Assembly (NCBI GenBank): GCA_018816865.1
Contig: JAHIUW010000023.1
Span: 1-64,000, forward strand
Source: Pseudomonadota bacterium
GTDB lineage: Bacteria > Desulfobacterota > Desulfovibrionia > Desulfovibrionales > Desulfovibrionaceae
DNA: 64,000 bases
Direction: 5' to 3'
Part shown: positions 1 to 29,383 of the stretch, piece after piece
Layout of the letters: every line of letters begins with the position of its first letter
Numbering within the stretch: position 1 is the stretch's first letter
Program-made: the position numbers and the translations under genes
The notes under the pieces: model-generated
Database searches by the model: none
What the model was told of the DNA's origin: nothing
What the model saw: the letters and a program-made list of their open reading frames with translations, nothing else

Positions 1-203
1 CTTCTTCCTCGTGGTCATGACGTTCTCCTGGCTTGAGGTTTCGGTGAAGTTTCGCAACTCCAGCCGTACCCCAACCAAGGGCGGCATGACCACGTTCACT
101 TTTGTGGCCAACTGTCAGGTGATAACCATCTCACTACAGTTGGTCTGCCCCATCGTAAGCCCGCCACCCCTGTTCCCAAGGATTGATCCATCGGCCACGC
201 CCC

Positions 204-1571
204 TCACCCCACCATGCGTTCCAGTTCCGGGCGCACCCGCTCGAACAGGCCCGCCAGCTCCACGCGCTCCAGCCCGGGCTGGTCTCCCTGGGCCTCGGGC
301 CAGATCAGCTGGGCCCGGCCCAGGCCGTCCACACGCAGCCGCAGCTTGAGGACCATGGCCCTGTCCAGCAGTTGGCCGTATTCGTCCGAGCCCAGGGTGG
401 GCAGTTCATCAAAGCCCAACTTCCGCACCTGGCAGGCCTGCCTGCGCAGTACATGCCCGGGCAGCCCGGCCAGGGCCCAATCCCGGATCGCCAATTGCCC
501 CACTAGGTCCCCCTGATCTTTGCCCAGGCGGCGGGGCACAGGCCAGCGCACGGCCTGGGGGTAGACCCTGTTCCAGGCAAATCTCCAGGCCCCGCGCGGA
601 GCAAAGTTCCAGGCCATGCGTGCCCCGGCCTGGTCGTTGTCCACCCCCACCAGGATCAGCTCGGCCCGGGTCAGGATCTCATGGGCCTCCTCATCCGGCG
701 CGTGCGAGGTGGAGCGCGTGGCCATCACCCCCAGGCCCAGGGCCCGCAGCTCCTGGAAGACCAGCATGGCGTCGCGCTCGGTCTCCAGCACCACCCAGTG
801 TCGCACCCGCGCCGGGTCGCCCAGCACCATGTAGCGGGTCTCGCTGCCCGGGATCTCGCGGTACTTGGAGCCCCCCTCATGTTCGGGCTCGTCCTGGCGG
901 ATCTTCAGCTGCACCACCTCCCCGTCAACGAACCAGGGCAGCACCAGCCCCGGCGGCAGGTAGATGCAGCGCTCGCGCCCCTGGTGGTTCTCGGCATAGG
1001 GCAGGCCCCAGCTGGTATAGGGCCGAAAGACCTTGTCCGGGTTCAGGCCCATGCGCAGCTCCCCGGCCGTGGTGCGCAGGATTCCCCAGCGCGTGCGCAG
1101 TTTCTCCAGGGCCTCGGCGTCCTGCTGCAACCGGGCCGCGCAATCCAGGGCAAAGGCCGTGGCCTTGGTCCGCCAGATCCGGGGCGCGAACTCCCTGCGC
1201 CGCGGGGCCCAGGCCTGGGGCGCCGCCCCCTCGATGCCCCGGCGCTGTCCGGGGCTCAGCTTGTGGCCCTGGCCAAAGGCCTTCACGAACAGCCTGAAGC
1301 CCTCGGGGTCGTCCTGGTCCCGGCCCTGGGTCACGTTCCACAGCCCGATCAGGTCCGCGCCCTGGCCGCAGGAATAGCAGTGGCCCCAGTCCCGCTCATA
1401 GTCGTAGCGAAAGGCCCCGCCCGGGGACCGCTCGCTGTGCAGCGGGCAATAGGCCCCCAGGGCCGTGGCCGTGCCGTGGCGTTGGCAGATCGCTTCCCCC
1501 ACGCCGCTCAGGATGTCCTGGGCGATGGCCTTGCGCTCCATGGCCGACAACAGCTCTAGTGCCGCCCCCAT
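204..1571 (-). CDS. Phage/plasmid DNA primase with CHC2 zinc-finger and TOPRIM domains (P4 alpha-like N-terminal module). Track ORF extends to 1598; the ATG at 1571 has a GGAGG RBS.
   Basis: CHC2 zinc-finger motif CPLHSERSPGGAFRY...GHCYSCG; acidic TOPRIM-like stretch LILVGVDNDQAG; a GGAGG lies 6 nt upstream of the internal ATG. Confidence 0.75.
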   Translation of the reverse strand: MGAALELLSAMERKAIAQDILSGVGEAICQRHGTATALGAYCPLHSERSPGGAFRYDYERDWGHCYSCGQGADLIGLWNVTQGRDQDDPEGFRLFVKAFGQGHKLSPGQRRGIEGAAPQAWAPRRREFAPRIWRTKATAFALDCAARLQQDAEALEKLRTRWGILRTTAGELRMGLNPDKVFRPYTSWGLPYAENHQGRERCIYLPPGLVLPWFVDGEVVQLKIRQDEPEHEGGSKYREIPGSETRYMVLGDPARVRHWVVLETERDAMLVFQELRALGLGVMATRSTSHAPDEEAHEILTRAELILVGVDNDQAGARMAWNFAPRGAWRFAWNRVYPQAVRWPVPRRLGKDQGDLVGQLAIRDWALAGLPGHVLRRQACQVRKLGFDELPTLGSDEYGQLLDRAMVLKLRLRVDGLGRAQLIWPEAQGDQPGLERVELAGLFERVRPELERMVG

Positions 1572-1598
1572 CCCCCTACCTCCGGTGTTCTCGGTCAA

Positions 1599-1917
1599 GG
1601 TCGATGAGCGCGGGCGCGCCCGGGCCCCAGACCATGGCCCCAGACCTTTGTGCCCTGTTTCCGTAGACCTTTGTCATGGTGTTTTCCTCGCTATTTCGCA
1701 GGCTTGTTTCCAGGCCCAGACCTTGGAGACCTTTGGCCCGACCCTTCTTCCCTTTTTTCATTTCCCTCTTCTTCTCTCTTTCCTTTCTCATTTCTTTTCA
1801 GAATAAGGTCTAAAAGGTCTAAAAAGAGCAAAGAGGGGAGTTCAACACGCCGGAATCCTGTTCCTTTTTCAGCCAGACCTTGACGCTGCCAAGGTCGATC
1901 CCATCCTCTGCCAGGGT
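1599..1917. promoter_or_regulatory. Iteron-like repeat region between the primase and helicase genes; candidate replication origin or regulatory region of the integrative element.
   Basis: At least seven copies of AGACCTT(T)G or its reverse complement AGGTCT, e.g. agacctttgt twice, agaccttgg, agacctttgg, and aggtctaaaaggtctaaaa; plus a roughly 100-nt CT-rich tract. Confidence 0.5.
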
Positions 1918-3942
1918 CTAGTCCCGGGCCTCGTCGTCCTGGCGCTCGCCCAGGGTCCTGCGCCAGTCCTCCTTCAGGCGCAGGCCGTGATATTCCACGA
2001 TATTCGTGCGCCGCGAGCGGAAGCGGGTCTTCATGTCCGTGCCCCACTTGCGTTGGGACTGGACCATCTTCACGGGGATGGATTTCTCGGTCACGCACCA
2101 GAATTTGAAGCTCTCGTACAGGGCCTTGGACTGCTCGAAATTGTCCGCCGGGTGGTTCACGCAGTTCTCGATCCACTCGCCCACCAGGTCCTGTTCCGCG
2201 GTGTATTCCTCGGTCTCGGCCATGACCCCGGCCGGGGCCGCCAGGTCCTCCTCGCGCAGATAGCGGTGGGCGCAGCGCACCAGATAGGCCAGGATCCCCG
2301 GCCCCTCGGCCCGGTACTTGCGCTCCACGTCCTTCATGTTTCCGGCCTGGTAGATGTGCTTGGCCGGGTCCAGCAGCGAGCGGTCGCGCGTGAACTTGGC
2401 CCGAAACGGGATCAGCCGCAGCCTGCGGTAAAAGGCCGGGTCGTTGCCCTTGCACTCGGGCATGTAGTTGGTGTGCAGCAGGATCTTGGCCGTGTTGTGG
2501 AAGTCCACCAGGTCCGCGAACAGCCCGCGCGCGGACATGGTGTCCCCGCCGGTCAGGCTCTTGATGGTCGAGACGTTGAACTTGGAGCCTTGCTCGGCCT
2601 CGGAGAAGATGGCCAGCCGCAGGCCCATCAGCTTCATCAGCTCCGGGTCCGGGCCCCCGCCCTTGCGCATCTCGGTCAACAGCGACACGGGCACGGTCTC
2701 GGCCATGTCGCCCATGACCCAGGCAATGGTCTCGCACCACGAGCTCTTGCCGTTGTCGTGGGTCGGGCCATAGGCCGCCCAGAGCTGCTTGTGGCTCAAA
2801 AGCCCCGTGACCATGTAGCCCAGCACCCGGTCCAGGTAGTCCACTAGGTCCGGGTCGTAGCACATCATGCGCCACAGGCTCTCCTCAAAAAACGGGGCCT
2901 CCAGGTGCGGGCCCAGGTACTCAATGGGCGAGGCTTGGCGGATGTACTGCTCGGGTCGGCCCGGGTGCAGACGCATGGTCTCCAGGTCGATCACCCCGTT
3001 GGCGCAGGCCAGCAGGGTGGGGTGGCGGTCCCAGATCTCGCTGGTCACCCCCAGGGTCCCGCGCCCGGCCACGGCGGTCTGCAGGATCTTGCGCACCACG
3101 GGCAGGCGGCGCAGGTCGTCGGCTCGCGAGCTGTAGGGTTTCACCGCGGCCACAAGGTCCTTGTGCTCGGGGCTGCCGGGCTTGAGCCCGTCCCTGATCC
3201 GCTCCTGGATGCCCTTGCGCCGGCGGATGGCCTCGCGCTCAAAGGGCAGGGCCAGATCCATGACTTGGCGCTGGGCGTCGCGGTACTCGTCGGGTCGCCA
3301 GCGGATCCCGTCAAAGATCATCCAGTGGTCGCTCTTCTGGCCGTCGGCCTTCTTGGTCACGTCCAGCTCGCAGCAGATCCGGTCCCGGACCTTGGCCATG
3401 TACAGTTCGGCCAGGCCCAGGTCGCTGCGGTTGATGGCCGCCTGCAGCTCCTTGGCCGAGGGCGCCCAGTTCTCTTTGCCTGGGGCATCCTGCTGCTTGT
3501 TCTTCTTTTTGTCCTTATACCCCTGACCTGTGTCCGCGCCCCGGCCTGTGCCCGTGGGAGTGCCCTCACGCCCCTGACCTGTGTCCGTGCCCCGGCCTGT
3601 GCCCGTGGGAGTGTCCTCACGCCCCTGACCTGTGTCCGCGCCCCGGCCTGTGCCCGTGGGAGTGTCCAGACCGTCTTGGTCCTTGCCCGGAACACGGCCC
3701 CCTTGCTTGCCCTTCTTTCTGTCTCCGCGCTCCTTGTCTTGGCCAGTGTCCAGGGCCAGCATGGCCCGGCGCTCGTTCTCCACCTCGCCCAGGATCTCGG
3801 CCCGCAGCTCCTCGTCGCGCCACGCGCAAAGGTCAAACTCCCCCTTGCCCGAAACACAGCCCCGAGCGTCAAAGGCGTTTGGTCCCCTGGGCGCGTTGGT
3901 TACGTTGGACGCGTTGGTATGATCCTTTGAGGATTCAGGCAT
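1918..3942 (-). CDS. Phage/plasmid primase C-terminal D5_N/P4-family NTPase (helicase-like) protein. Probable start is the ATG at 3942, with an AGGGA RBS.
   Basis: Walker A GPTHDNGKSS. Conserved D5/P4 primase C-terminal region (VDYLDRVLGYMVTG...FNVSTIKSLTGGDTMSARGLF). N-terminal low-complexity repeat region. Confidence 0.8.
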   Translation of the reverse strand: MPESSKDHTNASNVTNAPRGPNAFDARGCVSGKGEFDLCAWRDEELRAEILGEVENERRAMLALDTGQDKERGDRKKGKQGGRVPGKDQDGLDTPTGTGRGADTGQGREDTPTGTGRGTDTGQGREGTPTGTGRGADTGQGYKDKKKNKQQDAPGKENWAPSAKELQAAINRSDLGLAELYMAKVRDRICCELDVTKKADGQKSDHWMIFDGIRWRPDEYRDAQRQVMDLALPFEREAIRRRKGIQERIRDGLKPGSPEHKDLVAAVKPYSSRADDLRRLPVVRKILQTAVAGRGTLGVTSEIWDRHPTLLACANGVIDLETMRLHPGRPEQYIRQASPIEYLGPHLEAPFFEESLWRMMCYDPDLVDYLDRVLGYMVTGLLSHKQLWAAYGPTHDNGKSSWCETIAWVMGDMAETVPVSLLTEMRKGGGPDPELMKLMGLRLAIFSEAEQGSKFNVSTIKSLTGGDTMSARGLFADLVDFHNTAKILLHTNYMPECKGNDPAFYRRLRLIPFRAKFTRDRSLLDPAKHIYQAGNMKDVERKYRAEGPGILAYLVRCAHRYLREEDLAAPAGVMAETEEYTAEQDLVGEWIENCVNHPADNFEQSKALYESFKFWCVTEKSIPVKMVQSQRKWGTDMKTRFRSRRTNIVEYHGLRLKEDWRRTLGERQDDEARD
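3520..3668. repeat. Near-perfect 3x51-bp in-frame tandem repeat inside the helicase gene, encoding (TGTGRGADTGQGREDTP)x3.
   Basis: Direct read: the unit cccctgacctgtgtccgcgccccggcctgtgcccgtgggagtg(c/t)cctcacg is repeated at 3520, 3571 and 3622. Confidence 0.9.
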
Positions 3943-4470
3943 CCCAGGCTCCCTTGCCGTTGAGGGTGACGCCGTCATAATTTGCTTGGCCGTCTGCCAT
4001 GCCATGAAAAATAGAGGTGATGGAGGTAACACGATCAGGCAGAAGAGTAGTCAGATTGGCCCGCCAGCTCGCGCGGTTCCATCTTTCCATTCCAAAATTG
4101 AAATTGATCCCGCACGCACTTCGTGCTGCTACCGACCCCTGTGGTTTAAGACCATGGGAAGTACCTACGATGTGTGGCCCTGTTGATTTTCGCGGGACTA
4201 GACCTTTCTTTTGTTCTTGTACTGAGGGGGGTGTGGGGTGTGGATGATTTTCACCCGCGTTGAAGCAGTGGTTGCGATCGCTGACGCTCTCGCATCCTTG
4301 AGATTTCGGTAGAGAATATGGGAGTGGCCAATCCGGTGTTGAGGGGACCGGTTTGGGGTCAAAAGTGGGGACAAAACGAGTAGGATATGGGAGCGGTTTA
4401 TGCTTCAGTTGAAGCCGGGAATCCCTTAAGTAAAGGGGCATCGAGGTCTCCCAGCCCGTGTCCTTGCTGC

Positions 4471-4563
4471 CTCTCACGTCGGCAGCAGGGGTTCAAACCC
4501 CCTTGGGGACGCCAACAAAAGCCATGAAAAGTCAGGTAGTTACGCTACCTGGCTTTTCTTCTT
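4471..4563. repeat. Repeat family 1, copy A: a tRNA 3'-half-like segment (T-arm, acceptor 3' strand, discriminator and CCA; 4485-4514) followed by a terminator hairpin (4527-4556). Candidate attR of the upstream element.
   Basis: aggggTTCAAACcccct T-arm, then tggggac-g-cca. No matching acceptor 5' strand or D-arm upstream, so not a full tRNA. Stem gtcaggtag/ctacctggc followed by TTTT. Confidence 0.6.
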
Positions 4564-4629
4564 TTGTGGAAGGGAGAGGTGGGGGCGCGGTGTGCACTCG
4601 TTATGCCGGGAACGGCGCGGTGCCGCGGT

Positions 4630-5667
4630 TCAGGGTGATTCCGGCGTCCACTGGCTGGCGAGTCGTTCGGCTTGGGCTATTTGGTCGGGAGTCATGGACT
4701 GCTCGATATCCTGCGCGATTTGTGCCGCGGCCTCGTTACCTCGCTGGGCTGCCAGCGTGAGCCACATCAAGGCTCGTACGGGGTGGGGGGCGACGCCATT
4801 TCCCTTGGCGTAGGCCAGCCCCAGGTGGAGCTGGCCGGTGGCGTCTCCCTGTTGAGCTGCCCTGTGATACCATAGGGCGGCCATCTCCTTGTCCTGCTCG
4901 ATGCCCTCGCCCAGGTCGTAGGAAACCCCCAGGTTGAATTGGGCCTCGGGACATCCTTGCTGTGCCGCCTCGCGATACCAATGCACGGCCATCTCCTTGT
5001 CCTGCTCCACCCCGTCGCCCAGGTCGTAGGAAACCCCCAGGTTGAGTTGGGCGTCGGTGTCTCCCCCCAGTGCGGCCTTGCGATACCAATGCACGGCTTG
5101 TTCTTTGTCTTGTTCCACGCCTGTGCCGGTGTCGTACATGACCCCCAGGTTGAGTTGGGCGTCGGTGTCTCCCCCCAGTGCGGCCTTGCGATACCAATGC
5201 ACGGCTTGCACCTTGTCCTGCTCTACGCCTTCGCCCAGGGCGTAGGAGACTCCCAGGTTGAATTGGGCGTTAGCATCTCCCTGAACAGCGGCTTCGCGAT
5301 ACCACTGCACAGCCTGGGCCTTGTCCTGCTCCACGCCTTCGCCCAGGTCGTAGGAAACTCCCAAGTTGAATTGGGCGTCGGCGTCTCCTCCCAGTGCGGC
5401 CTTGCGATACCACTGCACGGCTTGTTCTTTGTCTTGTTCCACCCCTGTGCCGGTGTCGTACATGACCCCCAGGTTGAATTGGGCGGTGGCGTTCCCTTGC
5501 TCGGCCGCCTGGCGATAATGTTTTACGGCGAGGGCGTATTCCCCTTGGCTGTAGGCCTTTTTCCCCTCTTGGTAAGGGTTTTGCGTGGTCGCGCAGGACG
5601 TCAGGGCCAGGGCGACAAGGATCAGGGCGCAAGGTGTCAGCAAGGCGGGGATAGTCCTGTTGCGCAT
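4630..5667 (-). CDS. Sel1-repeat (SLR/HcpA-like) lipoprotein with signal peptide and lipobox.
   Basis: About eight tandem AQ(F/L)NLGV(M/S)YxxGxGVEQDxxxAVxWYRKAA units. N-terminal MRNRTIPALLTPCALILVALALTSC; the 36-aa units are also nearly identical at DNA level. Confidence 0.85.
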   Translation of the reverse strand: MRNRTIPALLTPCALILVALALTSCATTQNPYQEGKKAYSQGEYALAVKHYRQAAEQGNATAQFNLGVMYDTGTGVEQDKEQAVQWYRKAALGGDADAQFNLGVSYDLGEGVEQDKAQAVQWYREAAVQGDANAQFNLGVSYALGEGVEQDKVQAVHWYRKAALGGDTDAQLNLGVMYDTGTGVEQDKEQAVHWYRKAALGGDTDAQLNLGVSYDLGDGVEQDKEMAVHWYREAAQQGCPEAQFNLGVSYDLGEGIEQDKEMAALWYHRAAQQGDATGQLHLGLAYAKGNGVAPHPVRALMWLTLAAQRGNEAAAQIAQDIEQSMTPDQIAQAERLASQWTPESP

Positions 5668-6004
5668 GGGGGGGCTCCGTTGGGGCAAACAGTGTTTCGA
5701 GAATGAGGAACTAATAGCAAAGATTTCAGAATGTTTCGAGGAGGATTGGCCTGCCCCGTGCAATGTGTGCTCCGGGGAGGGGCAATGTGCGGGTGTGGCA
5801 GGGTGGGGGTTCCAACGCTGTCAGCGTATAAGTCTTCCACGTTTGGGCAGCTCAACATGCTGCGATATTTGAGGATCTTTTGTTGGTCCGCAGGGGGGCT
5901 GATTTTGCCTTGCCATTTTTCCTCGTGCGTATATAGCCTCCGGGGGTATGATCTGGGGCTGCGTTCTGCCAAGCCCCTTCTCGTACGGGAAATACTGCAT
6001 AAGG

Positions 6005-7552
6005 ATGGTGCCGACAATGAGTGAAGAGACTGAACACAAGCTGCAAACACGCCATCTCTGCATGGACGATTACGAAGCCCTGCGCGGTATCTACAGGCGG
6101 GTCTACAAGGGGGTCGACACCCCGTGGACGCGGGAGCAGATCGCCCTGCTGATCAGCATCTTCCCCGAAGGCCAGGTGTGCATCGAGGACAATGGAGAGC
6201 CGGTGGCCATCGCCTTGTCCATGGTCATCGACTTTAGCCTGTTCGGCGACCAGCACACCTATAACCAGATCATTGGCAACGGCACCTTCAAGTCCCATGA
6301 CCCGGAAGGGGATTACCTCTATGGGATTGAGGTCTTCGTGGACCCGGAATACCGGGGCATGCGCCTGGGGCGTCGGATGTATGATGCCCGCAAGGAGATC
6401 GCCGAAAATCTCAATCTCAAGGGCATCCTGCTGGGCGGACGCATCCCCGGCTACCACAAGGTCTCAAGCGAGATGACGCCCCAGGAGTATATCCTCAAGG
6501 TCAAAAGTCGCGAGATCTACGACTCGGTGCTCACCTTCCAGCTTTCCAACGATTTCCATGTCCGCAACCTGCTCGATGATTACTGGCCGGGCGACCACCT
6601 CTCCCGCGGCAATGCCGTGCTCCTTGAATGGATCAACATCTACTACCAGAAGAAGACTCGACTGGTGGGGCGGACCAAGTCCATCGCTCGCCTCGGCGTG
6701 GTCCAATGGGAGATGCGCCGCTTCGACTCCTTTGACGACTTCATGCAGCAGGTGGAGTTCTTTGTGGACACGGTCAGTGCCTACAAGGCGGACATCATCC
6801 TCTTTCCGGAACTGCTCAACGCTCCGCTGATCCGCATGTACGAGGGCATGAGCCCGTCCGATGCCATGCGCCATTTGGCGGAGCACACCGCTGATATGCG
6901 CCAGGCCATGACGGACATGGCCCTGAGCTACAACATCAACATCGTGACCGGGAGCGTGCCGCAAGTTCAGGAAGACGGCACCCTACACAACGTCAGTTTC
7001 CTGTGCCGCCGCGACGGGACCTGGGACAGCCAGACCAAGCTGCACATCACTCCGGAAGAAGAATCTCACTGGGGTTTCACGGGTGGCCATGATCTGAAGG
7101 TCTTTGACACGGATGTCGGCAAGGTGGGCATCCTCATCTGCTACGATGTGGAGTTCCCGGAACTGGCGCGTTTGCAGACCATGAAGGGCATGAAGATGTT
7201 GTTGGTCCCCTTTTGGACCGACACCAAGACAGGCTACCTGCGGGTTCGGCGTTGCGCCCAGGCCCGGGCCATCGAAAACGAGTGCTTTGTGGCCATCTCC
7301 GGCAGCGTTGGCAACATCCCCAAGGTGGAGACCATGGGAATCCAGTATTCCCAATCCGCCATCTTCACGCCCTCGGACTTCCCCTTCCCCCATGACGCCA
7401 TCGCATCGGAGGTGACACCGGGCATTGAGACAACGCTGATTACCGATGTTGACCTCGACCTGCTCAAGGAGTTGCGCTCCCAGGGCAGCGTGCGCAACGT
7501 CACCAGCCGCAGGACCGACCTCTACGAACTGCGCTGGATCGGGGGCAAATAG
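6005..7552 (+). CDS. GNAT N-acetyltransferase fused to a carbon-nitrogen hydrolase (nitrilase superfamily). Start is 6005 or 6017.
   Basis: N-terminal acetyl-CoA-binding-like region (VFVDPEYRGMRLGRRMY). C-terminal region carries Glu (ILFPEL), Lys and Cys (ILICYDVEFPE) candidates for the nitrilase-superfamily triad. Confidence 0.8.
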   Translation: MVPTMSEETEHKLQTRHLCMDDYEALRGIYRRVYKGVDTPWTREQIALLISIFPEGQVCIEDNGEPVAIALSMVIDFSLFGDQHTYNQIIGNGTFKSHDPEGDYLYGIEVFVDPEYRGMRLGRRMYDARKEIAENLNLKGILLGGRIPGYHKVSSEMTPQEYILKVKSREIYDSVLTFQLSNDFHVRNLLDDYWPGDHLSRGNAVLLEWINIYYQKKTRLVGRTKSIARLGVVQWEMRRFDSFDDFMQQVEFFVDTVSAYKADIILFPELLNAPLIRMYEGMSPSDAMRHLAEHTADMRQAMTDMALSYNINIVTGSVPQVQEDGTLHNVSFLCRRDGTWDSQTKLHITPEEESHWGFTGGHDLKVFDTDVGKVGILICYDVEFPELARLQTMKGMKMLLVPFWTDTKTGYLRVRRCAQARAIENECFVAISGSVGNIPKVETMGIQYSQSAIFTPSDFPFPHDAIASEVTPGIETTLITDVDLDLLKELRSQGSVRNVTSRRTDLYELRWIGGK

Positions 7553-7580
7553 TCGCCAAGGGCCCTCCAGAGGGGCAGCC

Positions 7581-7670
7581 CTCCACGTCCGGCAGGGATT
7601 CAAACCCCCTTTAGGACGCCAGATACAATCACTGAAAAGCCAGAGAGTTACGCTCTCTGGCTTTTCTTAT
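7581..7670. repeat. Repeat family 1, copy B: tRNA 3'-half-like segment plus terminator hairpin.
   Basis: cagggattcaaaccccctttaggacgcca, then aaaagccagagagttacgctctctggcttttctt. About 85% identical to copy A. Confidence 0.6.
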
Positions 7671-7885
7671 TTCAAATTTTTCAGAAACGAAGGACCAGTC
7701 CGCGATCGTGGGGCACCAGACTTTCCATTCACTCCCCATTCGCATAGAGAGGTCCATGCCCATGGACAAGCCGCGACGCCCCCAGGTGGGTTTGGCCCTC
7801 GGTCCTGGCCCTGGTTCCTGGCCGAGCATCCTGCGAGAGTCTCAAATCAATGCAATCCCCGGTTCGAATCTGGAGAGTCACCAAG

Positions 7886-9804
7886 TGAAGATCGTGAACG
7901 TTTTTGGAATGTCCTTAGCGTTGCTCCTCGTGTGCGGGGTGTTTTCTCCGCGGTCTGCTGCCTGGGCGCGGGATACCAGCCAGCCCAAGCCTGAACTCTA
8001 TCAGGCCATTGATCTGGGCGATCTTGCCCGGGCGCGGGTCGCCATCCAGAGCGCCGACGTGAATGCCATCTATGACCGGGATACAATGCTCTGCTGGGCG
8101 CTGCGAAACGAGAACCCGGAGATCACGAAGCTGCTGCTTCAGTCGCCCAGGGTGGACGTCAACAAGCGGGGCATTGGCTATGACGCCTACGGTGATTGGG
8201 AACGCACACCCTTGATCCTTGCCGCACACATGGGCCAGGCCGAGATGGTGGGCCTTTTGCTGCAGCGGGGCGCCAAAGTGAACGCCAGGGACCGCACGGA
8301 CAGCACACCGGAGGCGCGGGGGAACACCGCGCTGCTCAAGGCCGCGCAGAGAGATCACACGGAGGTGATCCGGGTGCTGCTCACCCAGGGGGCGGGCATT
8401 ACAGTCGATGCGCAGACCAAGGATGGCATGACGCCGCTGTGGTTCGTTGCGGAATATGAAAACCTTGAGGCGGTGCAGCTCCTGCTCGCCCACGGCGCAA
8501 AAATCAATCATCCCAACGTCGTGGGCCAGTCCCTGCTTGTGGGAACGTTTCTGCACAAAAAGTACGACGTCTTGGAGTTCCTTGTCGCCCAGGGCGCAGA
8601 CATCAATATGGTGGCAAATAGCGGGCTCACGCCGCTGATGGAGGCCGTCACCGAGCTCGGCGGTAAGAATGCAAAAACGGTCCTCAGGTACATTGAAAAA
8701 TTCATCACCTTCAAGCCCAAGCTGGACCTGGAGCAGATCAAGTCGAACGGTGGCGGCTTTAGTGCCCTGCATCTGGCCGCGCGCTTCGGGTTTGTGGATG
8801 CAGGCAAACTGCTGCTGGACAATGGCGCCAGCATCGACATCAAAGATCTGGCCACGGGCGGCACGCCCTTGCATTCCGCCGCAAGCGCCAACCAGGTCGA
8901 CTTCGCCAGGTTCCTGATCCAGCGCAAGGCCAACCTCGAGATTTTCGACAAAAGCGGCTCGACCCCGCTGATGGTGGCCGTCTATCAGGCTGACGCGGAC
9001 ATGGTGGAGGTCCTGGCGCAGGCCGGAGCGGCAATCAACACCAAATCACCCGTCAATATCCTTGTGACGCCCCTGGTGTATGCCGCCTCGAATCCCGATC
9101 CCTCCAAGCACAAGGACAACCTCTCCATCATCAAAATCCTCGTGGACAACAAGGGCGACATCAACTTCCAGTCCGCCAATGGCAGAACGGCGCTCATGGC
9201 CGCTGCCGCGTGCTCTGACCAAGCGAATGGATACGAGAAAGGGGCCTTGCTGCTCAACCACGGTGCGGACCCCGATGTCGTGAACGACAAGGGAGAGACG
9301 GCCCTGATGCTTGCTGCGGGCGCAGGGAATGAAAAACTCGTTAAGCTCCTCGTGGATAAGGGCGCCGACGTTACAAAAAAGAACGGCGCCGATGAAACGG
9401 TGATGAGCTATGCCAACCGATCCGGCAACAAGGGCAGTACGAGGTTGCTGGAATCCAAAGGCGTCGTGCCTGAAGCCCCCATTGTCAGAAAGAGCGTCAT
9501 TGTCGACGCACTGATCGGAACCTGGAAGGGCTTTCAGGATGGGCTTCCCCAGGCCTTGTACACCGTGGTCCTGAACAAGGACGGCAGCTTTGACTTCACT
9601 TCAAGGTTCACGCCCGAGGCCCTGAAGCAGTTCCCCAAGGGCGCAGTGAATCCGATCATTGCCGCCCAGAAGGGGACGTATACGTTCAACAATGATATCA
9701 TGATCTGGAATCTTGTCGGTGCCCCTCCCACGTCCATGAAGTGGAAGCTGGAGAACGGCGTGCTGGTCATCGACAACAAAATCAGACTGAAAAAGACCAA
9801 GTAA
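7886..9804 (+). CDS. Secreted ankyrin-repeat protein with a C-terminal beta-rich, lipocalin-like tail. Probable GTG start at 7886; the track ORF begins at 7708.
   Basis: Signal peptide VKIVNVFGMSLALLLVCGVFSPRSAAWA. At least eight ankyrin units (TPLxxAAxxGxxExVxLLLxxGAxVN). GGAGAG RBS 8 nt upstream of the GTG. Confidence 0.8.
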
Positions 9805-10029
9805 CCCCAGCAGGGGGCGCGCCAATCGTCCAGAGGCAGGAGAGACCGCACCCCCGCGGGAGCGAACGCCGCGGCCCTTTCAGCAGATGAAAGGCCCCGG
9901 CGAGGGGGCTGGGTGAGCGACCCTTGCCTCTTCCCGAGATGCGTGGCAGTGGGCGGACAGACAGCGTTGATTTCCCGCTCTCTCCAGGGACTGGAGGAGA
10001 TGCGCTTGTGAACAATTCGTAGGACCCAG

Positions 10030-11082
10030 GTGACAATGCCCAAGACCAAAGACTTTTTTTTCAATGAGCACACCAGGCACGGCCTCAAGGTCGGGCTGGC
10101 GAGTGTCTTGGCGTACGTCGCGTCCGGTCTGCTTGGGTTGCCCTATGCGTATTGGGCCGTCATCACCACGGTCATCGTCATGCAGATGCATGTGGCGGAC
10201 TCCATCCAGATGTGTCTGTATCGGTTCACCGGGACGGCCATCGGTGCGGCCATGGGCATCGCCATGATCCTGATCTTTCCGCCCACACCCCTGTTCACAC
10301 TGCTCGGGATCTTTGTCGGGACAAGTGTTTGCGCCTATCTGACGCGGTACAACACGCGCTTCCGCATGGCGGCCATTACCGTGGCCATCGTCTATCTGAC
10401 CAGCCTTGGCGACGCGCATCGCATTCAGTTCACGCTGTTTCGGGTGGCGGAAATAGGCATGGGCGTGCTGTGCGCTTTCTTTGTTTCGGTGGTCGTGTGG
10501 CCCCAAAGGGTCGCCGGAGCCTTGCGGGAAAGGCTGCGAGGTCAGTTTGTCGAACTCGCGGAATTGGCCGCACTGCTCATGGACAACTTTCTCTCTCTGC
10601 AAAAAAAGACCGACCCTAAGCTTTTCGACGATCTCGCGAGGGAGAACGAGAAGAACAGGGAAATGTTCCATAAGGTCTTCGTCACGGAGAGGCGGTTGTT
10701 CCGGGACGACGTGGGGCTGCTCTCCCTGCAGGTGAGCGCGTTCAGTTCCGTGCTGGAGAGGCTGCGGGCCATGCTCATCCTGCTGAATGAAGCGGAGGGC
10801 GAGGGCTTCGAGATCATTATGGCCCCGGAGCTGGGAGAGCTGACGCAGGCGACCGCCGCGGCACTGCGGGACCTGGGGGCGGGACTCACGCATGACTGTA
10901 GCCGCCTGGAGCGCGCCATCAGCGCCATTGAGCCCCGGTTCGTCGAGCTGCGCCGGCAAGGGGTGACGCAGCGCTTTGATGCCCAGCGCCTCTTCCAGGT
11001 GCTTGGGATCATCAATTCGGCGCAACACCTGGGGGACTATGTCCTCGAAAAGCTCAGGCGCGAGGACGCTCCCCATAGCTGA
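10030..11082 (+). CDS. FUSC/ArAE-family (fusaric acid resistance-like, aromatic acid exporter) membrane protein.
   Basis: N-terminal multi-TM region (YAYWAVITTVIVMQ...) followed by a cytoplasmic coiled region; architecture typical of YccS/AaeB-like proteins. Confidence 0.65.
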   Translation: MTMPKTKDFFFNEHTRHGLKVGLASVLAYVASGLLGLPYAYWAVITTVIVMQMHVADSIQMCLYRFTGTAIGAAMGIAMILIFPPTPLFTLLGIFVGTSVCAYLTRYNTRFRMAAITVAIVYLTSLGDAHRIQFTLFRVAEIGMGVLCAFFVSVVVWPQRVAGALRERLRGQFVELAELAALLMDNFLSLQKKTDPKLFDDLARENEKNREMFHKVFVTERRLFRDDVGLLSLQVSAFSSVLERLRAMLILLNEAEGEGFEIIMAPELGELTQATAAALRDLGAGLTHDCSRLERAISAIEPRFVELRRQGVTQRFDAQRLFQVLGIINSAQHLGDYVLEKLRREDAPHS

Positions 11083-11213
11083 GCCTGCCCGGCATCCGAC
11101 TCCCGAAATGGAATCTTCTTTGAAGCTCGTCCTGGAAACGGTTTGGACAGGTAGAAAAGGACGGGCTTGGTAAAGCCGGAGGGCTTCGACCTGGTTCAGG
11201 GAATAAACAACTT

Positions 11214-11304
11214 TCTCATGTCGCCAGTGGGGGTTAAACCACTCTGGGGCGCCAAATAAAATCATCGGAAAGCCAGGGAGTGACGCTCTCTGGCTTTATT
11301 TTGC
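11214..11304. repeat. Repeat family 1, copy C: the most diverged tRNA 3'-half-like segment plus terminator hairpin.
   Basis: gtgggggttaaaccactctggggcgcca, then ggaaagccagggagtgacgctctctggctttatttt. Confidence 0.55.
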
Positions 11305-11422
11305 GTTTCCGGAAACGTAGGTCGAGATCGGGAGGCTTGCTTGGAGAGAATCCCCAGGTCGGGGCGTTTTCCAGGGAGAATGCAGGGACCTTCTCTCCGA
11401 CTGCCTGTCGTAGTGCAAAGGA

Positions 11423-11644: not shown

Positions 11645-12070
11645 TCAGCACTCTTTGGAAGCAGAGCGGCAGGCATTGGTAAGCCTGTTCTCAATATACT
11701 GATAAAACTCGTCATCGAACTCGTAGAGATCGAAACACTTGGCGTCTTCGCCCAACAGGCCTTCGGGGACCTCGTCTCCACGCTGGTCCGGGTCGTCCAC
11801 GAGTTCGTTATAAAAACAGACCGAGAGCCATCGGTCAGCAGGGTCGTCATCGATAATGTCCACCATGGCGAACAGGCTCCGCTTTTGCTGGTTGGCATGA
11901 GAGGCGCGCAACGAATAGGTGATGCCCGGGCGGGCGATAAAAGTGAGGTTTACGTCACTGAGTCCCTCAAGGTGCTCCATGAAGCGAAGGAAGCATCGCT
12001 TGGTCCGATTCGGGTCTTTCGACCAGGATTCAAGGAATAATGTCAGTTCCTCGGTGCAGGTGGCATCCAT
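11645..12070 (-). CDS. Acidic hypothetical protein, last gene of the Cys-rich operon.
   Basis: Intact 141-aa ORF in a lower-GC stretch. The opposite-strand ORF 11519-12040 is less plausible. No recognisable motif. Confidence 0.4.
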   Translation of the reverse strand: MDATCTEELTLFLESWSKDPNRTKRCFLRFMEHLEGLSDVNLTFIARPGITYSLRASHANQQKRSLFAMVDIIDDDPADRWLSVCFYNELVDDPDQRGDEVPEGLLGEDAKCFDLYEFDDEFYQYIENRLTNACRSASKEC

Positions 12071-12124
12071 TGTTTCGGTTCTCCTCGCTTGTTGATTTGC
12101 CTATGTAGTCCACGACTCCAGCCA

Positions 12125-12622
12125 TCAGATATGGGGGATGTTACGGACAAAATCCTCCAGGAATATTTTCAGGTCATCCACCTTTTGGCTGCTGATGGTC
12201 GGGACGTCGGTGGCCAGGGCTTGCACCTTGTCCAGGGGAACGTTGATCGCCTTGTGCACCGTATAGGATTCCACGTCCTCGCCTTCCGGGACTCGGCCGC
12301 AGCCGCCGATGATGCCGATGAATTCATCATTCGCAAAGATGGGGGTACAGATTTTGAGCATTCCCGCGTCGCACTGCTCGAGGATCGTTTTCCCTGTGGA
12401 CCGGGCCTGTTTGGCCATGTGCTGATGCGCTACGGAACAGATCGCCTGGATTCCCTCAGGGTGAGATTTGATCTCGGCGCACAAGGGGTTGATGAAGTTC
12501 TTGAAGCCCGTAAAGGTCATCCCCTTGGCGTCATAGGCGCATGCGTTGACTCCCCAGTTGTTGTGCAGGTTCTTTTCCAGGTCGGCCCATTGATTCTTGG
12601 AAAGCAGGTCAGTCATTTCCAT
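12125..12622 (-). CDS. Cys/His-containing hypothetical protein, possibly ligand-binding (PocR-like?). Family not recognised with confidence.
   Basis: 165-aa ORF 45 nt downstream of the CGGC-like gene. Conserved-looking C...C/H pattern (CAEIKSHPEGIQAICSVAHQH, IGIIGGCG). Confidence 0.45.
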   Translation of the reverse strand: MEMTDLLSKNQWADLEKNLHNNWGVNACAYDAKGMTFTGFKNFINPLCAEIKSHPEGIQAICSVAHQHMAKQARSTGKTILEQCDAGMLKICTPIFANDEFIGIIGGCGRVPEGEDVESYTVHKAINVPLDKVQALATDVPTISSQKVDDLKIFLEDFVRNIPHI

Positions 12623-12664
12623 GGTGATCTCCTTGTTCTCAGATGTTCTGGTGTGGATGAGGCG

Positions 12665-13039
12665 TTAGATTTCAGGGGAGTATCCTTCGGGCAGATGAGC
12701 CGTGCCCTTGATGCAGGGAATGCCGGTGGCTTCGCGCATCTGGGAAAGCAATTGTTCGTGCTTTTCGCAAAAACCATCGCCTTCCAAAACCCACTTTCCA
12801 TCGACCTTGTTTGCAAAAAGACAAGTGGCGACGTGAATAACCTCAGCGCCTTTGGCCTTGAGGATCTTGGCCAGATTGACCACATTGTCCCCAGGGCAGC
12901 GGCAGGTGAAAATGCCTGCAAGCGTTGCCGCATCATAGGACTTGAAGCCCTGCGTTCTTTGCTCCAGGCAGGTGATACAGCCCGTTAACGGGCAGGTAGT
13001 TTCGTTTTTTTCGCAGCGGATGATTCCAATTTTTGTCAT
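12665..13039 (-). CDS. CGGC-domain-like Cys-rich putative metal-binding protein. Start at MTKIGIIRCE.
   Basis: The start MTKIGIIRCEKNETTCPLTGCITC resembles the CGGC-domain family; several Cys pairs (CRCPGD, CLFANK, CEKHE). Confidence 0.45.
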   Translation of the reverse strand: MTKIGIIRCEKNETTCPLTGCITCLEQRTQGFKSYDAATLAGIFTCRCPGDNVVNLAKILKAKGAEVIHVATCLFANKVDGKWVLEGDGFCEKHEQLLSQMREATGIPCIKGTAHLPEGYSPEI

Positions 13040-13070
13040 GCTGTCTACCTGTGTTGAATAGAATGTGTTG

Positions 13071-13517
13071 TTATTTTTCCTTTTCCATACGCAAGGTGCG
13101 TTTGTAGTAATCCCCCACGGCCTCTTGGAGGGCATTTGCCGCTAACGAGGCGCAATGCGCGTCATCGTCGGGAAGGCCTCCCAGGCGATGGAGGATGACC
13201 TTTCCGGTGATGGCGGAGAGGGCGTCGCTGTGTTTGTTCAGGGCGAGTTCCGCAGCCATGGAGCCACAGATCAGACTGGAGCCGCAGCCGGTTGTTTGGA
13301 ACCCGGACTGACAGACCATGTCGTCTTCGATATTCAAGAAAATGGTTATGTTGTCGCCACACTCTCCGGTCATGGAGCCCCGACAGTTGGTCTGTGGCGG
13401 TTCCCCCATGTTGGGAGGATTGCGCCAGCGGTCATAGGCCTTCTGGCCGTAGAGCGCGCTGGTTTCTTTGTCCATGCGATCTTGCAGGTCGTTGACGAAA
13501 TCATTGATGTCAGCCAT
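13071..13517 (-). CDS. NifU/IscU-like Fe-S cluster scaffold protein.
   Basis: The three scaffold Cys motifs GECGD, GCGSSLI and HCASLA at canonical spacing. Confidence 0.8.
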   Translation of the reverse strand: MADINDFVNDLQDRMDKETSALYGQKAYDRWRNPPNMGEPPQTNCRGSMTGECGDNITIFLNIEDDMVCQSGFQTTGCGSSLICGSMAAELALNKHSDALSAITGKVILHRLGGLPDDDAHCASLAANALQEAVGDYYKRTLRMEKEK

Positions 13518-13609
13518 GGCCCGTTCGTCTCCTTTTGATGGAATATATAGCGATCACCAAGCGTGGGCCCGGTGATCGCCGTAGGGTGGGCAGTACTGAC
13601 CGGGAACAC

Positions 13610-13954
13610 CTATTCGGCGTCCCTTTGATCCAGTTCGGCCATGCGCCGTTGGATGGCCTTTAGTTCTGATTCAAGAATCCTTGCTTGGTTTTGTAGGGCC
13701 TGTTGCTCGTCTTGCGGGCTGGGCGTGAATGCGGCCCCGGCAAGGGGAAGGCCCTGCCAGCCTCCGCAGCGGCCACCACGACCTCCCCGGAAGCCAAAGC
13801 CATAACGCAGGCGCATGCCGTTTGGCCCGTAGCCTGCCCCGTAGCCTGCGCCATACCCCCATGGGGTCGGGGCGTTGACGCCGGTGCACCCACCTAGGCC
13901 CCGGCCCGAGGCCGGGCCGATTCCCATAGGACCCGTTCCGTCTCTGCGTGGCAT
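13610..13954 (-). CDS. DUF5320-family protein. Start at MPRRDGTGPMGIGP.
   Basis: The N-terminus MPRRDGTGPMGIGPASGRGLGGCTG matches the DUF5320 signature; Gly/Tyr-rich middle; C-terminal coiled coil. Confidence 0.6.
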   Translation of the reverse strand: MPRRDGTGPMGIGPASGRGLGGCTGVNAPTPWGYGAGYGAGYGPNGMRLRYGFGFRGGRGGRCGGWQGLPLAGAAFTPSPQDEQQALQNQARILESELKAIQRRMAELDQRDAE

Positions 13955-13974
13955 GATTGCCTCCTTTGCTAATG

Positions 13975-14667
13975 TTACGCCCGCACCAGTGGCGCGTGGC
14001 AGTTCGAACATCTTCGTTGCGAGCAGGGGATGCCAGGCACAGCCTCAACCCTTTGTCCGCAGTGTGGGCATCGGCATGAGACCTGTTTCCGGTTCAAGGA
14101 CGATGCCTCCGGCGGTGTGGCGGGTTCCTCGCGCACATTGCCCTCGCCTGGTTCCATGAGTTGACCGCGTCTGTGCGCATGCCTGCCCTGACCCGACCAG
14201 GACTGCCCCCCTCGTCCGAATCTTCCGGCCCAGAGGAGGTTGCCAGCGGTTGGTTGAGAGCCGCGGGTCATGGAAAGCCTCCCGGCGTATCCTGGAACCA
14301 TGAATTGCTGATTGTCGAGTTGGTCGGCCCGCCATGCTGTGATGAGTTCTTCCAGGTCACCCATGAGGAAAGAGTGAACCGTGATGCCTTGCGCGGCAAT
14401 GACGCCGGACAGCTGCCGCGAGATGGCTCCGCACACCAGGACATCCACTCGCCATCTCTGCAACGCGGCGGTGGTGGCGTATGGTGCTTCGGTCGGCATG
14501 CGCACCACGCGGAGTGGTGTTTTGCAACAAGGGTCCTTCGCCACAAGGACGGCCTGCGACGCGACATCAAAGACCGGCGCTATCCGCTCTTCCCAGACGC
14601 TGAAAGCTGCGTTCATGGTGGGGCCTGCTCCTTCTTGCATTGAAAGAGCAGTATCCATGCCAAGCAA
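13975..14667 (-). CDS. NifX/NafY/NifB-type dinitrogenase FeMo-cofactor-binding domain protein (MTH1175-like) with a C-terminal zinc-ribbon extension. Start uncertain.
   Basis: RIAPVFDVASQAVLV...VDVLVCGAISRQLSGVIAAQGITVH matches the Nif_FeMo_cofactor fold. C-terminal CRCPHCG...CSNCH. Confidence 0.65.
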   Translation of the reverse strand: MLGMDTALSMQEGAGPTMNAAFSVWEERIAPVFDVASQAVLVAKDPCCKTPLRVVRMPTEAPYATTAALQRWRVDVLVCGAISRQLSGVIAAQGITVHSFLMGDLEELITAWRADQLDNQQFMVPGYAGRLSMTRGSQPTAGNLLWAGRFGRGGQSWSGQGRHAHRRGQLMEPGEGNVREEPATPPEASSLNRKQVSCRCPHCGQRVEAVPGIPCSQRRCSNCHAPLVRA

Positions 14668-14744
14668 CAGCCCTGCGCCGTTTGTTTCTATTTGGCTGTC
14701 TTTATTGAACTAAAATTGATTTGCAGGAGGGGAATGTCGTTGAT

Positions 14745-14786
14745 GGGTCGCAATGCTGCGACCTTTCGGAGTGAAAGGGTCGCAGT
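14745..14786. promoter_or_regulatory. Array of three alternating GGTCGCA/TGCGACC half-sites between the sigma-54 activator gene and the NifX-like operon. Candidate UAS/operator, with a weak sigma-54 -24/-12-like element overlapping on the minus strand.
   Basis: GGTCGCAatgcTGCGACCtttcggagtgaaagGGTCGCA. On the minus strand aGGtcgcagcaTTGCg has correct GG-N10-GC spacing about 65 nt upstream of the ORF start. Confidence 0.4.
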
Positions 14787-14790
14787 TCTG

Positions 14791-26292: not shown

Positions 26293-26894
26293 GGCTCTGG
26301 CTTGCCACATGCTGTTTCCCCCTCGCCTGTGTCGAAGATGATTGCGTAGAAAAAATAAGTATCAGTAATAACTATCTAAGGTATCATACTGGTCAATAGT
26401 TTGAATTGCAAAAGGTTTGGGCCTTGCTCAAACTCATGCACCTGAATCAAGGGGCTGCATTCTTGAATTCTCAGCAGTGACAAGCTTGTTGATGATGAGC
26501 TGGGCCAAACTTGGTGGTGGGAAGAATTGCCGGGAGAAGACAGGGGGGCAGGCCAAAAACAATGCCGGGGAGCGGACTCTCTGGCTTTTTCCATGACATC
26601 GGAGGAGATCACAGGATTTGTCGGCGCTGCTGATGGGCAGGTGGTCCTCGGCCCGGTTCTGCTGCAGTTCGTCGCGAGAGGTCCTTGCCCGAACGGGCAG
26701 GTCAGAACAGGAAAAACTCTATTTTTGATTTTAAGAGAGCGTGGATTGTCAGTCTTGAGAACTGAGTGTTTGTATCTTTCACAGCGACTTACGGATTGCA
26801 AAGCATATGAAAAGTGGCTAAATATCAAACCACCTATCATGGACGGGGCTGACTGGATCGCGGGTCATCGTGAACAGTACGAGGGGGGGGCAGC

Positions 26895-29237: not shown

Positions 29238-29351
29238 CGCACCCCGGCCCTCACGCTGTTCGGCCCTCTGGGCGACACATTGGGCGACAGCCCGACGGGC
29301 ACACAGGCCGACACCCTGGTCGGCAATGATGCCTTCAGGACGCAGAATAAG

Positions 29352-29383
29352 AAACGGGTTGCAGCAGACGCTGCAACCCGTTT
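29352..29383. terminator. Bidirectional intrinsic terminator between the convergent flotillin and radical-SAM genes.
   Basis: AAACGGGTTGCAGC-agac-GCTGCAACCCGTTT: perfect 11-bp stem with A/T tracts on both sides. Confidence 0.8.

Follow-up and report, generated by a model that had tools for sequence, protein, structure and literature searches.

Fragments of tRNA genes have been described as the ends of genomic islands, with attP sites centred on the anticodon (2083 islands) and with islands in tandem arrays (PMC4383910). Tandem islands without integration modules have also been described, and these were read as cis-mobilizable elements formed by accretion (PMC3146451). In accretion arrays, which include cis-mobilizable elements (CIMEs) that lack an integrase, several direct att repeats are located downstream of one target gene; examples are the ssrA islands of Dehalococcoides and, in Streptococcus thermophilus, elements related to ICESt1. 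The satellite phage P4 uses a tRNA-Leu gene.

The locus considered here is located in a stretch of 64,000 nt, which is called the window below. It resembles the Islander signature (PMC4383910) in having tRNA 3' fragments in direct orientation that begin at the anticodon loop (site class A) and reach the 3' end of the gene, with arm-type repeats adjoining the fragment and a phage-type element on the tRNA side. Unlike in that signature, the repeated block extends about 50 nt beyond CCA, through a terminator hairpin, and the left tRNA gene and integrase would lie beyond the contig end. Like CIMEs, the two segments between the repeats (segments 1 and 2) are bounded by att-type sites and carry cargo only, with no integration module. 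The target differs from those of the accretion arrays named above: here it is tRNA-Glu(CUC), in an uncultured Desulfovibrionaceae-like bacterium.

Organization of the repeated modules

A repeat search revealed three direct copies of one family on the + strand, at positions 4471-4566 (A), 7581-7674 (B) and 11214-11307 (C), with copy-to-copy spacings of 3108 nt and 3633 nt. The first-pass annotation had claimed three copies and this was borne out by the repeat family, local alignments, a hairpin pattern and a covariance model. The local alignments span 4470-4564, 7580-7672 and 11214-11297 and their scores were 66-92, against a shuffle maximum of 28. The hairpin pattern matched exactly A, B and C in the window (chance expectation 0), and the covariance model built from A, B and C gave 100-110 bits on the copies and at most 25 bits elsewhere in the 64 kb.

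Each module leads from the anticodon loop to CCA and, after a short spacer, to the hairpin of an intrinsic terminator. The tRNA part includes the T arm, the 3' strand of the acceptor, the discriminator G and CCA. The spacer between CCA and hairpin is 11-13 nt long (about 20 nt with the A run at the stem base included), and the hairpins consist of 13-15 bp and a T run, with folding energies of -20 to -25 kcal/mol. The T arm, acceptor, CCA and hairpin had been recognized correctly at first reading, but the extent had not: the module starts at the anticodon loop CTCTCAC, further 5' than was claimed. The following parts were delimited:

4471-4514, + strand: tRNA part of copy A, which covers tRNA-Glu(CUC) from its anticodon loop (CTCTCAC) through CCA and is identical at 44/44 positions to the corresponding 3' part of the intact tRNA-Glu(CTC) of locus L033
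4526-4566, + strand: terminator hairpin and T run of copy A, 15 bp stem, loop TAC, -22.1 kcal/mol
7581-7621, + strand: tRNA part of copy B, 37/44 identical to the parent
7634-7674, + strand: terminator hairpin and T run of copy B, 15 bp stem, -24.9 kcal/mol
11214-11255, + strand: tRNA part of copy C, the most decayed, 34/44 identical to the parent
11269-11307, + strand: terminator hairpin and T run of copy C, 13 bp stem, -20.1 kcal/mol, downstream of the FUSC gene

These identities agree with the order of decay that had been proposed, in which A is the best preserved, followed by B and then C. The tRNA part of copy B contains one 1-nt deletion, one 2-nt deletion and four substitutions, one of which breaks a T-stem pair; in copy C the T loop is short of nucleotides and the T stem is broken. 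The hairpins of copies B and C keep their pairing, and two stem pairs of the B hairpin are changed on both sides relative to A with the pairing kept. The variant GTCGGCAGC is common to all three tRNA parts and to the tRNA of L033 and is lineage-specific.

No tRNA gene was found in the window by ARAGORN, and the 5' half of tRNA-Glu had no match in the window with up to 3 mismatches allowed. Both empty searches confirm the earlier remark that the modules lack a 5' tRNA half. No Rfam family exceeded the gathering threshold in the window, and local alignment revealed no significant homology among A, B and C on the 5' side of the anticodon loop. Copy A was also considered as a full tRNA-like element, with the GTCTCCC that precedes it as the 5' acceptor strand, and this candidate was dropped because the strand is not conserved in B and C.

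A relic of the module had been suggested at 26560-26580. The hairpin found there (26561-26589) is complete and small and is not distinguishable from an ordinary terminator. Only 13 nt of it (CTCTCTGGCTTTT) are common to B and C, its alignment score was 26-27 against a shuffle maximum of 24-28, and the model gave 7.5-8.8 bits (E about 1-2). The region 29311-29392 was tried as a fourth copy and rejected; it scored 24.4 bits, and the same model gives 22-25 bits for ordinary terminators at unrelated loci. No relatives of the hairpin pattern were found in the representative genomes of 185,579 species, where the lone match was a chance look-alike terminator in a metagenome-assembled gammaproteobacterial genome.

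Parent tRNA gene and related loci

As judged by sequence identity, the parent of all three modules is tRNA-Glu(CUC). A check of the parent tRNA had been proposed earlier, and it led to this gene, copy A agreeing with the 3' part of the intact gene throughout. The T-arm and acceptor pattern was found in 67 metagenome loci, mostly in intact genes; where checked, ARAGORN assigned these to tRNA-Glu(CTC). In A, B and C, and also in 11 loci that contain a fragment only and no tRNA, the homology begins in the anticodon loop, at CTCTCAC.

At other loci with an intact tRNA-Glu(CUC) gene, a spacer, a hairpin and short direct repeats come after the gene, and the module model, over all its 98 positions, is matched there with 40-66 bits. 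Neither the primary sequence of the hairpins nor the spacer had significant relatives among the other loci, and the A, B and C hairpins are therefore tied to these loci by architecture alone.

A gene encoding a tyrosine integrase is located 75 nt past tRNA-Glu(CUC) in L033. An integrase 59% identical to it is encoded in L076 in the same layout, beside tRNA-Glu(UUC). A search with the L033 integrase found relatives, none of them from the source sample. Tandem tRNA/fragment modules in other contigs were located using blastn-short. In L008, L030 and L048, a tRNA and a fragment are 1.2-2.7 kb apart, and L038 and L043 contain junctions that join two families of arm sites. L020 contains two fragment/hairpin/repeat modules, 140 nt long and nearly identical, which are 4.4 kb apart and flank one histidine kinase gene; no integrase was found between them or in the 6.5 kb examined rightward.

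Arm-type repeats

Short repeats resembling arm-binding sites of integrases were found beside A and C, and this role is predicted from their offsets and motifs. In general, arm-type pairs are located at +45/+58 after intact tRNAs and at about -150/-125 before fragments. The sites in the window are as follows:

4355-4376, + strand: GGGGTCAAAA and GGGGACAAAA, arm-type-like direct repeats at a distance of 12 nt from each other, with the CCA of copy A about 150-160 nt further on
7683-7692, + strand: AGAAACGAAG, candidate decayed arm site of the GGAAACGGTT family (8/10 positions), 62 nt past the CCA of copy B
11134-11143, + strand: arm-type-like site GGAAACGGTT, 121 nt before the CCA of copy C, right arm of segment 2
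11311-11320, + strand: GGAAACGTAG, candidate decayed arm site (8/10 against GGAAACGGTT), 56 nt past the CCA of copy C

The pair before A lies on the putative left arm of the attR of the left element. The motif GGGGWCAAAA has two matches in the window, both before A (0.2 expected). L007, an attR-like locus, contains this motif pair at -149/-137; in L006 and L033 the pair is located past the intact tRNA-Glu(CUC), at +45/+58. The alignment of the arm before A with the L007 arm gave a score of 35 against a shuffle maximum of 24. The site before C is the sole match of GGAAACGGTT in the window, even with 1 mismatch allowed, and its motif was also found at -136/-124 in the attR-like locus L038; the flank before C aligned with L038 at a score of 29 (shuffle maximum 25). 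The A-side (GGGGWCAAA) and C-side (GGAAACGGTT) motifs belong to different families.

In seven attL loci the GGAAACGGTT family has a site at +56/+58, and AGAAACGAAG is located close to that position; GGAAACGTAG sits at the attL offset of the same family. Each of them could possibly be a decayed arm-type site, and each is weak evidence when taken alone. The site GGAAACGTAG hints that the DNA to the right of C may also be a former inserted element. No right arm of segment 1 was recognizable; copy B begins 28 nt past a stop codon, that of the GNAT-hydrolase gene described below.

Left element, cargo segments and right side

To the left of copy A, the window contains the end of an element of prophage or satellite type:

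1-4470, - strand: right-hand part of the left element, truncated at window position 1, where the contig ends
204-1571, - strand: Zn-ribbon protein (Pfam)
1918-3942, - strand: P4-family D5_N/DUF5906 primase (Pfam)
about 4033-4470, - strand: non-coding right arm

The first-pass annotation called this element P4-like. The label holds for the primase, which is of the P4 family, and the element resembles P4 and P4-like elements in ending at a fragment of a tRNA gene. Otherwise it is only partly apt: among named homologues, those closest to the primase (35-40% identity) are the first genes of full prophages containing terminase, portal and capsid genes. The tRNA-Glu(CUC) used here also differs from the target of P4. 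Scans of viral contigs with the primase and with the 44-nt core gave no match.

Two cargo genes are located in each of the segments between the copies, segment 1 (A to B) and segment 2 (B to C):

4630-5667, - strand: Sel1-repeat protein, probable lipoprotein (Pfam Sel1, E = 9e-78), with 108-nt tandem repeats, segment 1
6017-7552, + strand: fusion of GNAT acetyltransferase and carbon-nitrogen hydrolase (Pfam; the exact product is on record), segment 1
7762-9804, + strand: ankyrin-repeat protein, 680 aa (Pfam Ank families), segment 2
10036-11082, + strand: FUSC/aromatic acid exporter family membrane protein (Pfam FUSC, E = 2e-38), segment 2

The Sel1 gene is convergent with the hairpin of copy A, and its stop codon at 4630 lies towards that hairpin. 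The hairpin of copy B is likely the terminator of the GNAT-hydrolase gene.

The earlier description of the segments as about 3 kb long and free of integrase proved accurate: no integrase domain or relic was found in either segment, or anywhere else in the window. Since segments 1 and 2 have no integrase, they fail the strict Islander rule for tandem arrays. The G+C content is mostly 0.53-0.60 (up to 0.64) in the region of 4-16.5 kb versus 0.62-0.72 in that of 16.5-26 kb. A 7-gene sigma-54 operon to the right of C recurs in L074 and partly in L075. No tRNA-Glu or module was found beside the operon in these two loci, including the closest operon-bearing relative.

Origin of the array

The copies A, B and C are very probably attachment-site remnants of serial site-specific integration into one tRNA-Glu(CUC) gene. 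The same course of events, in which successive insertions pushed older attR copies outward, had been suggested at first reading; it is supported by the match to the parent, the start of the copies in the anticodon loop, the arm motifs and the direction of decay. According to this scheme, tyrosine integrases of several related element families would recombine at the anticodon loop of tRNA-Glu(CUC). Each attP would bring a copy of the tRNA stretch that reaches from anticodon loop to CCA and, behind it, the terminator hairpin and arm-type repeats that bind the integrase. Since the attP would carry both the 3' part of the tRNA and a terminator, insertion would restore a complete, terminated tRNA gene, and the previous 3' part with its terminator would be displaced to the far end of the new element.

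The resulting array would consist of the tRNA gene and integrase (presumed to lie left of the contig end), the element with the P4-family primase, copy A, the Sel1 and GNAT-hydrolase genes, copy B, the ankyrin and FUSC genes and copy C. The order of the insertion events would follow this arrangement, with A as the youngest copy. Copy A is probably the still-working attR of the left element. Copies B and C would be older, displaced junctions of two small islands that lost their integrase or never had one; both islands resemble cis-mobilizable elements. The displaced tRNA parts, now useless, would decay, and the likely reason why the hairpins kept their pairing is a present role as terminators of the genes reading into them.

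Within the anticodon-loop region and close to it, copies B and C have deletions and substitutions. Because these copies are decayed in the presumed crossover region, their present mobility is doubtful. In comparison with CIMEs, this decay argues against recombination in trans by the integrase of a neighbouring element.

An unlikely variant of this history is that everything between A and C, perhaps together with the left element, accreted in another genome and then arrived as one composite island. The copies would in that case record events elsewhere and not three insertions in this place. Tandem islands can be mobilized as composites (PMC3146451), neither segment 1 nor segment 2 encodes an integrase, and the presence of the GTCGGCAGC variant in every tRNA part as well as in the L033 tRNA would fit such an arrival. 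Against it, the arm motifs on the A side and on the C side are of different families, and the graded decay (44, 37 and 34 of 44) suggests unequal ages. Both observations are nevertheless compatible with the composite variant, whose mechanism is that of serial integration.

It is also improbable that the modules, instead of being dead scars, are the working boundaries of a gene-capture platform at tRNA-Glu(CUC) in several Desulfovibrionaceae-type lineages. In this reading, the integrases of resident prophages would excise, shuffle and re-insert integrase-less cassettes in trans, and every cassette would end in a portable tRNA 3' part with terminator; L020 shows a one-gene cassette between its two modules. 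If true, this would be an integron-like system founded on a tRNA attachment site.

Repeats derived from tRNAs exist in other organisms, and the first-pass annotation had offered as a second reading a gene-cassette or MITE-like repeat family that supplies terminators. The module would then be a small tRNA-derived dispersed repeat of MITE or REP type, or a cassette boundary, which spreads by itself. Copies B and C do directly follow + strand genes, and each of the three copies has a good terminator hairpin. However, the 64 kb contain only three copies, which share one orientation and fall within 7 kb beside a phage-type element. They have neither terminal inverted repeats nor target duplications, they begin exactly at the place of integrase crossover and are flanked by arm-type sites, and a search of representative genomes from 185,579 species gave no relative of the hairpin pattern. 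This reading thus found no support and is very unlikely.

Just as unlikely is an origin by unequal recombination or slippage, in which the 3' end of the tRNA was duplicated locally along with its terminator, free of any integrase, and unrelated genes later came to lie between the copies. The copies are direct repeats and no integrase is visible in the window, as such a duplication would have it. It leaves unexplained why every copy starts in the anticodon loop, as att fragments elsewhere do, why differing arm-type motifs occur at stereotyped offsets and why the cargo (ankyrin, Sel1) is of a foreign type with low G+C content.

The idea that the tRNA-like parts are functional RNA elements of 3' UTRs, e.g., processing signals for RNase P or RNase Z, can hardly be upheld. 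B and C share the orientation of the upstream genes and precede a terminator, and copy A weakly matches the tRNA-like mascRNA family (19.6 bits, E = 3.4). Against this, B and C have a broken T stem and C has lost T-loop nucleotides, the 5' strand of the acceptor is not conserved, no Rfam family reaches the threshold and A has no preceding + strand gene.

Two further candidates were rejected: an integron attC cassette, as the repeat is a tRNA fragment with a terminator and has no attC-type palindrome and the window contains no integrase, and a functional tRNA or tRNA-like RNA, as there was no ARAGORN or Rfam call, the 5' half is absent and the T stem of B and C is broken.

Discussion

Serial integration at tRNA-Glu(CUC) is the reading adopted here. 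An array of leftover att sites at a tRNA gene is a well-known and ordinary pattern, and no general concept is changed by this locus. The finding accounts for the contig break inside the prophage. For annotation, it provides precise island boundaries and singles out four genes (ankyrin, Sel1, GNAT-hydrolase and FUSC) as cargo that was acquired.

It also indicates a much-used hot spot of insertion at the tRNA-Glu(CUC) of sulfate-reducer-like bacteria, with at least two families of arm-type sites used in the window and more in other contigs. The elements at tRNA-Glu(CUC) carry a terminator besides the tRNA end, and therefore the rebuilt tRNA gene stays complete.

Repeat modules and their parent tRNA gene

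The window contains three direct copies of one module (A, B and C), which separate the following features:

left of 4471, − strand: left element with genes for a P4-family primase (D5_N, DUF5906) and a Zn-ribbon protein
4471–4566, + strand: copy A
between A and B, − strand: Sel1-repeat protein gene
between A and B, + strand: GNAT/carbon-nitrogen hydrolase gene
7581–7674, + strand: copy B
between B and C: ankyrin-repeat protein gene
between B and C: FUSC-family membrane protein gene
11214–11307, + strand: copy C
11645–16182, − strand: seven-gene block (sigma-54 activator, 213-aa protein, DUF5320, NifU_N, CGGC, PocR, 141-aa protein)

The repeat search of the window grouped 4495–4564, 7603–7672 and 11236–11305 into one family, and local alignment of 450-nt stretches set the limits of homology at 4470–4564, 7580–7672 and 11214–11297, with scores of 66–92 against at most 28 for shuffled controls. 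On the + strand, the hairpin pattern AAAGNCAGNNAGTNACGCTNNCTGGCTTT matched at A, B and C only (chance expectation: none), and a covariance model built from the copies gave 100–110 bits on them and at most 25 bits elsewhere in the window. The three copies proposed in the first-pass annotation were thus borne out. Each one includes a T arm, the acceptor 3′ strand, a discriminator G, CCA, a short spacer and a 13–15 bp hairpin with a T run. This content had been described correctly except for its start, which is not the T arm but the first base of the anticodon loop, as the match to the 3′ part of an intact tRNA-Glu(CUC) gene revealed. No tRNA gene was found in the window using ARAGORN, no Rfam family matched it at thresholds and no match to the 5′ half of the parent tRNA was detected in it, in agreement with the earlier statement that all copies lack this half.

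Two other hairpins in the window, at 26561–26589 and 29311–29392, are terminator-like and loosely resemble that of the module. The former had been taken for a truncated relic of the hairpin arm (26560–26580), but it is a small complete hairpin sharing 13 nt with B and C; its alignment and model scores were not significant and were no better than those of ordinary terminators in unrelated DNA. The latter reached 24 bits with the model but was discarded, since ordinary terminators of unrelated loci reach 22–25 bits.

The likeness of the copies to the 3′ end of tRNA-Glu prompted a scan of metagenome contigs with TTCAAACCCCCTTNNGGACGCCA, which matched 67 loci (L-numbers below). Most of them contain the full gene, GTCCCCATCGTCTAGTGGCCTAGGAC-ACCGGC-CTCTCAC-GCCGG-TAAC-AGGGG-TTCAAAC-CCCCT-TGGGGAC-G-CCA, classified by ARAGORN as tRNA-Glu with the anticodon CTC in the loci checked. 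The gene in L033 is the exact variant of copy A (CTCTCACGTCGGCAGCAGGGG...), which identifies tRNA-Glu(CUC) as the parent; of the 44 positions compared with this gene, 44 are identical in A, 37 in B and 34 in C, in the order of decay suggested previously. In 11 other loci, only a fragment without the tRNA was found, with the same anticodon-loop start. For tRNA-targeting tyrosine integrases, this loop is a standard crossover site (PMC4383910).

Arm-type repeats and hairpins

Intact tRNA-Glu(CUC) genes of the metagenome loci are followed by pairs of short direct repeats, 44–47 and 56–60 nt past CCA and 12–13 nt apart, whose families include GGAAACGGTT, GGGGWCAAA, GGAAGTAC and GCGTGTCGAT. A tyrosine integrase gene follows the tRNA in L033, with the repeats located between the two; beside tRNA-Glu(UUC) in L076, the layout is the same. 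In fragment-only loci the same motifs occur upstream, at about −149/−137 (L007) and −136/−124 (L038). The window conforms to this pattern: its only two matches to the GGGGWCAAA-type motif, GGGGTCAAAA (4355) and GGGGACAAAA (4367), are located approximately 150–160 nt upstream of the CCA of copy A, and the single occurrence of GGAAACGGTT is 121 nt upstream of that of copy C. Alignment of the flank of copy A with the L007 arm scored 35 (shuffle maximum 24), and that of the flank of copy C with the L038 arm scored 29 (shuffle maximum 25). Because of these candidate arm motifs, A looks like the attR junction of a GGGGWCAAA-family element and the B–C segment like a remnant of a GGAAACGGTT-family element. 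AGAAACGAAG (+62, after B) and GGAAACGTAG (+56, after C) are located close to the attL offset and agree with GGAAACGGTT at 8/10 positions, which is weak evidence. In addition, GGCGCGGTG occurs twice, 30 nt apart (4584–4592 and 4614–4622), immediately 3′ of the hairpin of copy A; this pair may represent arm-type repeats of a further family or have arisen by chance in G+C-rich DNA.

At many of the other loci, a spacer, a hairpin and a T run separate the intact tRNA-Glu(CUC) gene from its arm-type repeats, and scores of 40–66 bits were obtained there with the complete 98-position module model. Elements using this tRNA therefore commonly carry a terminator in attP, which explains its presence in every displaced copy. 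Neither the other loci nor the representative genomes yielded a significant relative of the window hairpin sequence, which is lineage-specific. Copies A and B diverged about equally in the hairpin (5/33 positions) and the tRNA part (7/44), and four of the five hairpin changes form two compensatory pairs. Pairing was retained in 97.8% of the hairpin cells versus 86.7% of those of the T arm, which is statistically not strong for three sequences (104/500 shuffles reached this value). This pattern would fit selection for terminators behind the GNAT-hydrolase and FUSC genes, or else an origin of the hairpins in different elements.

Left element and cargo

The source contig (ENA ERZ27247128 k141_927785, 162,888 bp) stops at window position 1, which leaves the remainder of the left element, with the presumed integrase and intact tRNA, outside the data. 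No integrase domains or relics were found anywhere in the 64-kb window. The primase has its nearest named homologues in Nitratidesulfovibrio liaohensis and Desulfovibrio mangrovi, where they occupy the first gene position of full prophages; one of these prophages adjoins tRNA-Leu(CAA). The primase gene contains three tandem 51-nt units (3510–3699) encoding 17-residue repeats (TPTGTGRG[AT]DTGQGRE...), at which a Logan contig covering this region breaks. The left element includes another − strand gene that begins near position 17 (ATGACCACGAGGAAGAAG...) and is cut off by the contig end (1–20). The ENA and Logan breaks and the inferred NCBI break near position 1 lie within about 110–310 nt of one another, pointing to a repeat or heterogeneity among strains within the prophage.

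Beside copy A, the Sel1 repeats are encoded by 108-nt tandem units (4768–5499; 70–74% alike), within which a second Logan contig breaks. The G+C content is mostly 0.53–0.60 (up to 0.64) at 4–16.5 kb versus 0.62–0.72 at 16.5–26 kb. The seven-gene sigma-54 block right of C is complete in L074 (activator 81% identical) and partial in L075, with different neighbours each time, and may itself be island cargo. No tRNA-Glu lies beside it in L074; a tRNA-Phe gene in L075 and a tRNA-Glu(CUC) gene in L058 precede the activator gene by about 480 nt.

Origin of the array

Serial site-specific integration at tRNA-Glu(CUC) is the best explanation of the array and very probably correct. The parent match, the anticodon-loop start and the arm motifs support successive insertions at one tRNA 3′ end, as originally proposed. 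Each integration would displace the former tRNA 3′ part with its terminator; A would be attR of the most recent element, and B and C would be older junctions bounding two small islands without integrase. Less probably, this mechanism brought in the whole block as one composite. The MITE or cassette alternative of the first-pass annotation, in which the module would be a dispersed repeat supplying terminators, finds no support in the number and orientation of the copies, their start point, the arm sites beside them or the representative-genome scan. Integrase-free duplication of the tRNA 3′ end leaves the anticodon-loop start and the arm motifs unaccounted for, and the broken T stems contradict a functional tRNA-like RNA.

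The architecture of the array recurs at other loci. In L020, a single gene, for a hybrid histidine kinase, lies between two almost identical modules (1565–1700 and 5932–6070; about 140 nt each and 4.4 kb apart), both with a tRNA-Glu(CUC) fragment, a hairpin and GTCCACAT repeats. The locus lacks a tRNA; no integrase was found in the intervening segment or in the 6.5 kb examined on the right side, and an rve-type transposase is located on the left. In L008, L030 and L048, the tRNA and a decayed fragment are 1.2–2.7 kb apart. In L038 and L043, tRNA-Glu(CUC) fragments divide elements of the GGAAACGGTT and GGAAGTAC arm-site families in opposite orders, and therefore different integrase families alternate at this site. 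Given these loci, tandem occupation of tRNA-Glu(CUC), with small integrase-less segments, is common. Displaced tRNA 3′ fragments are a known mark of tRNA-gene islands (PMC4383910) and of tandem accretion with cis-mobilizable elements (PMC3146451), and the array in the window is thus a further instance of this well-known pattern.
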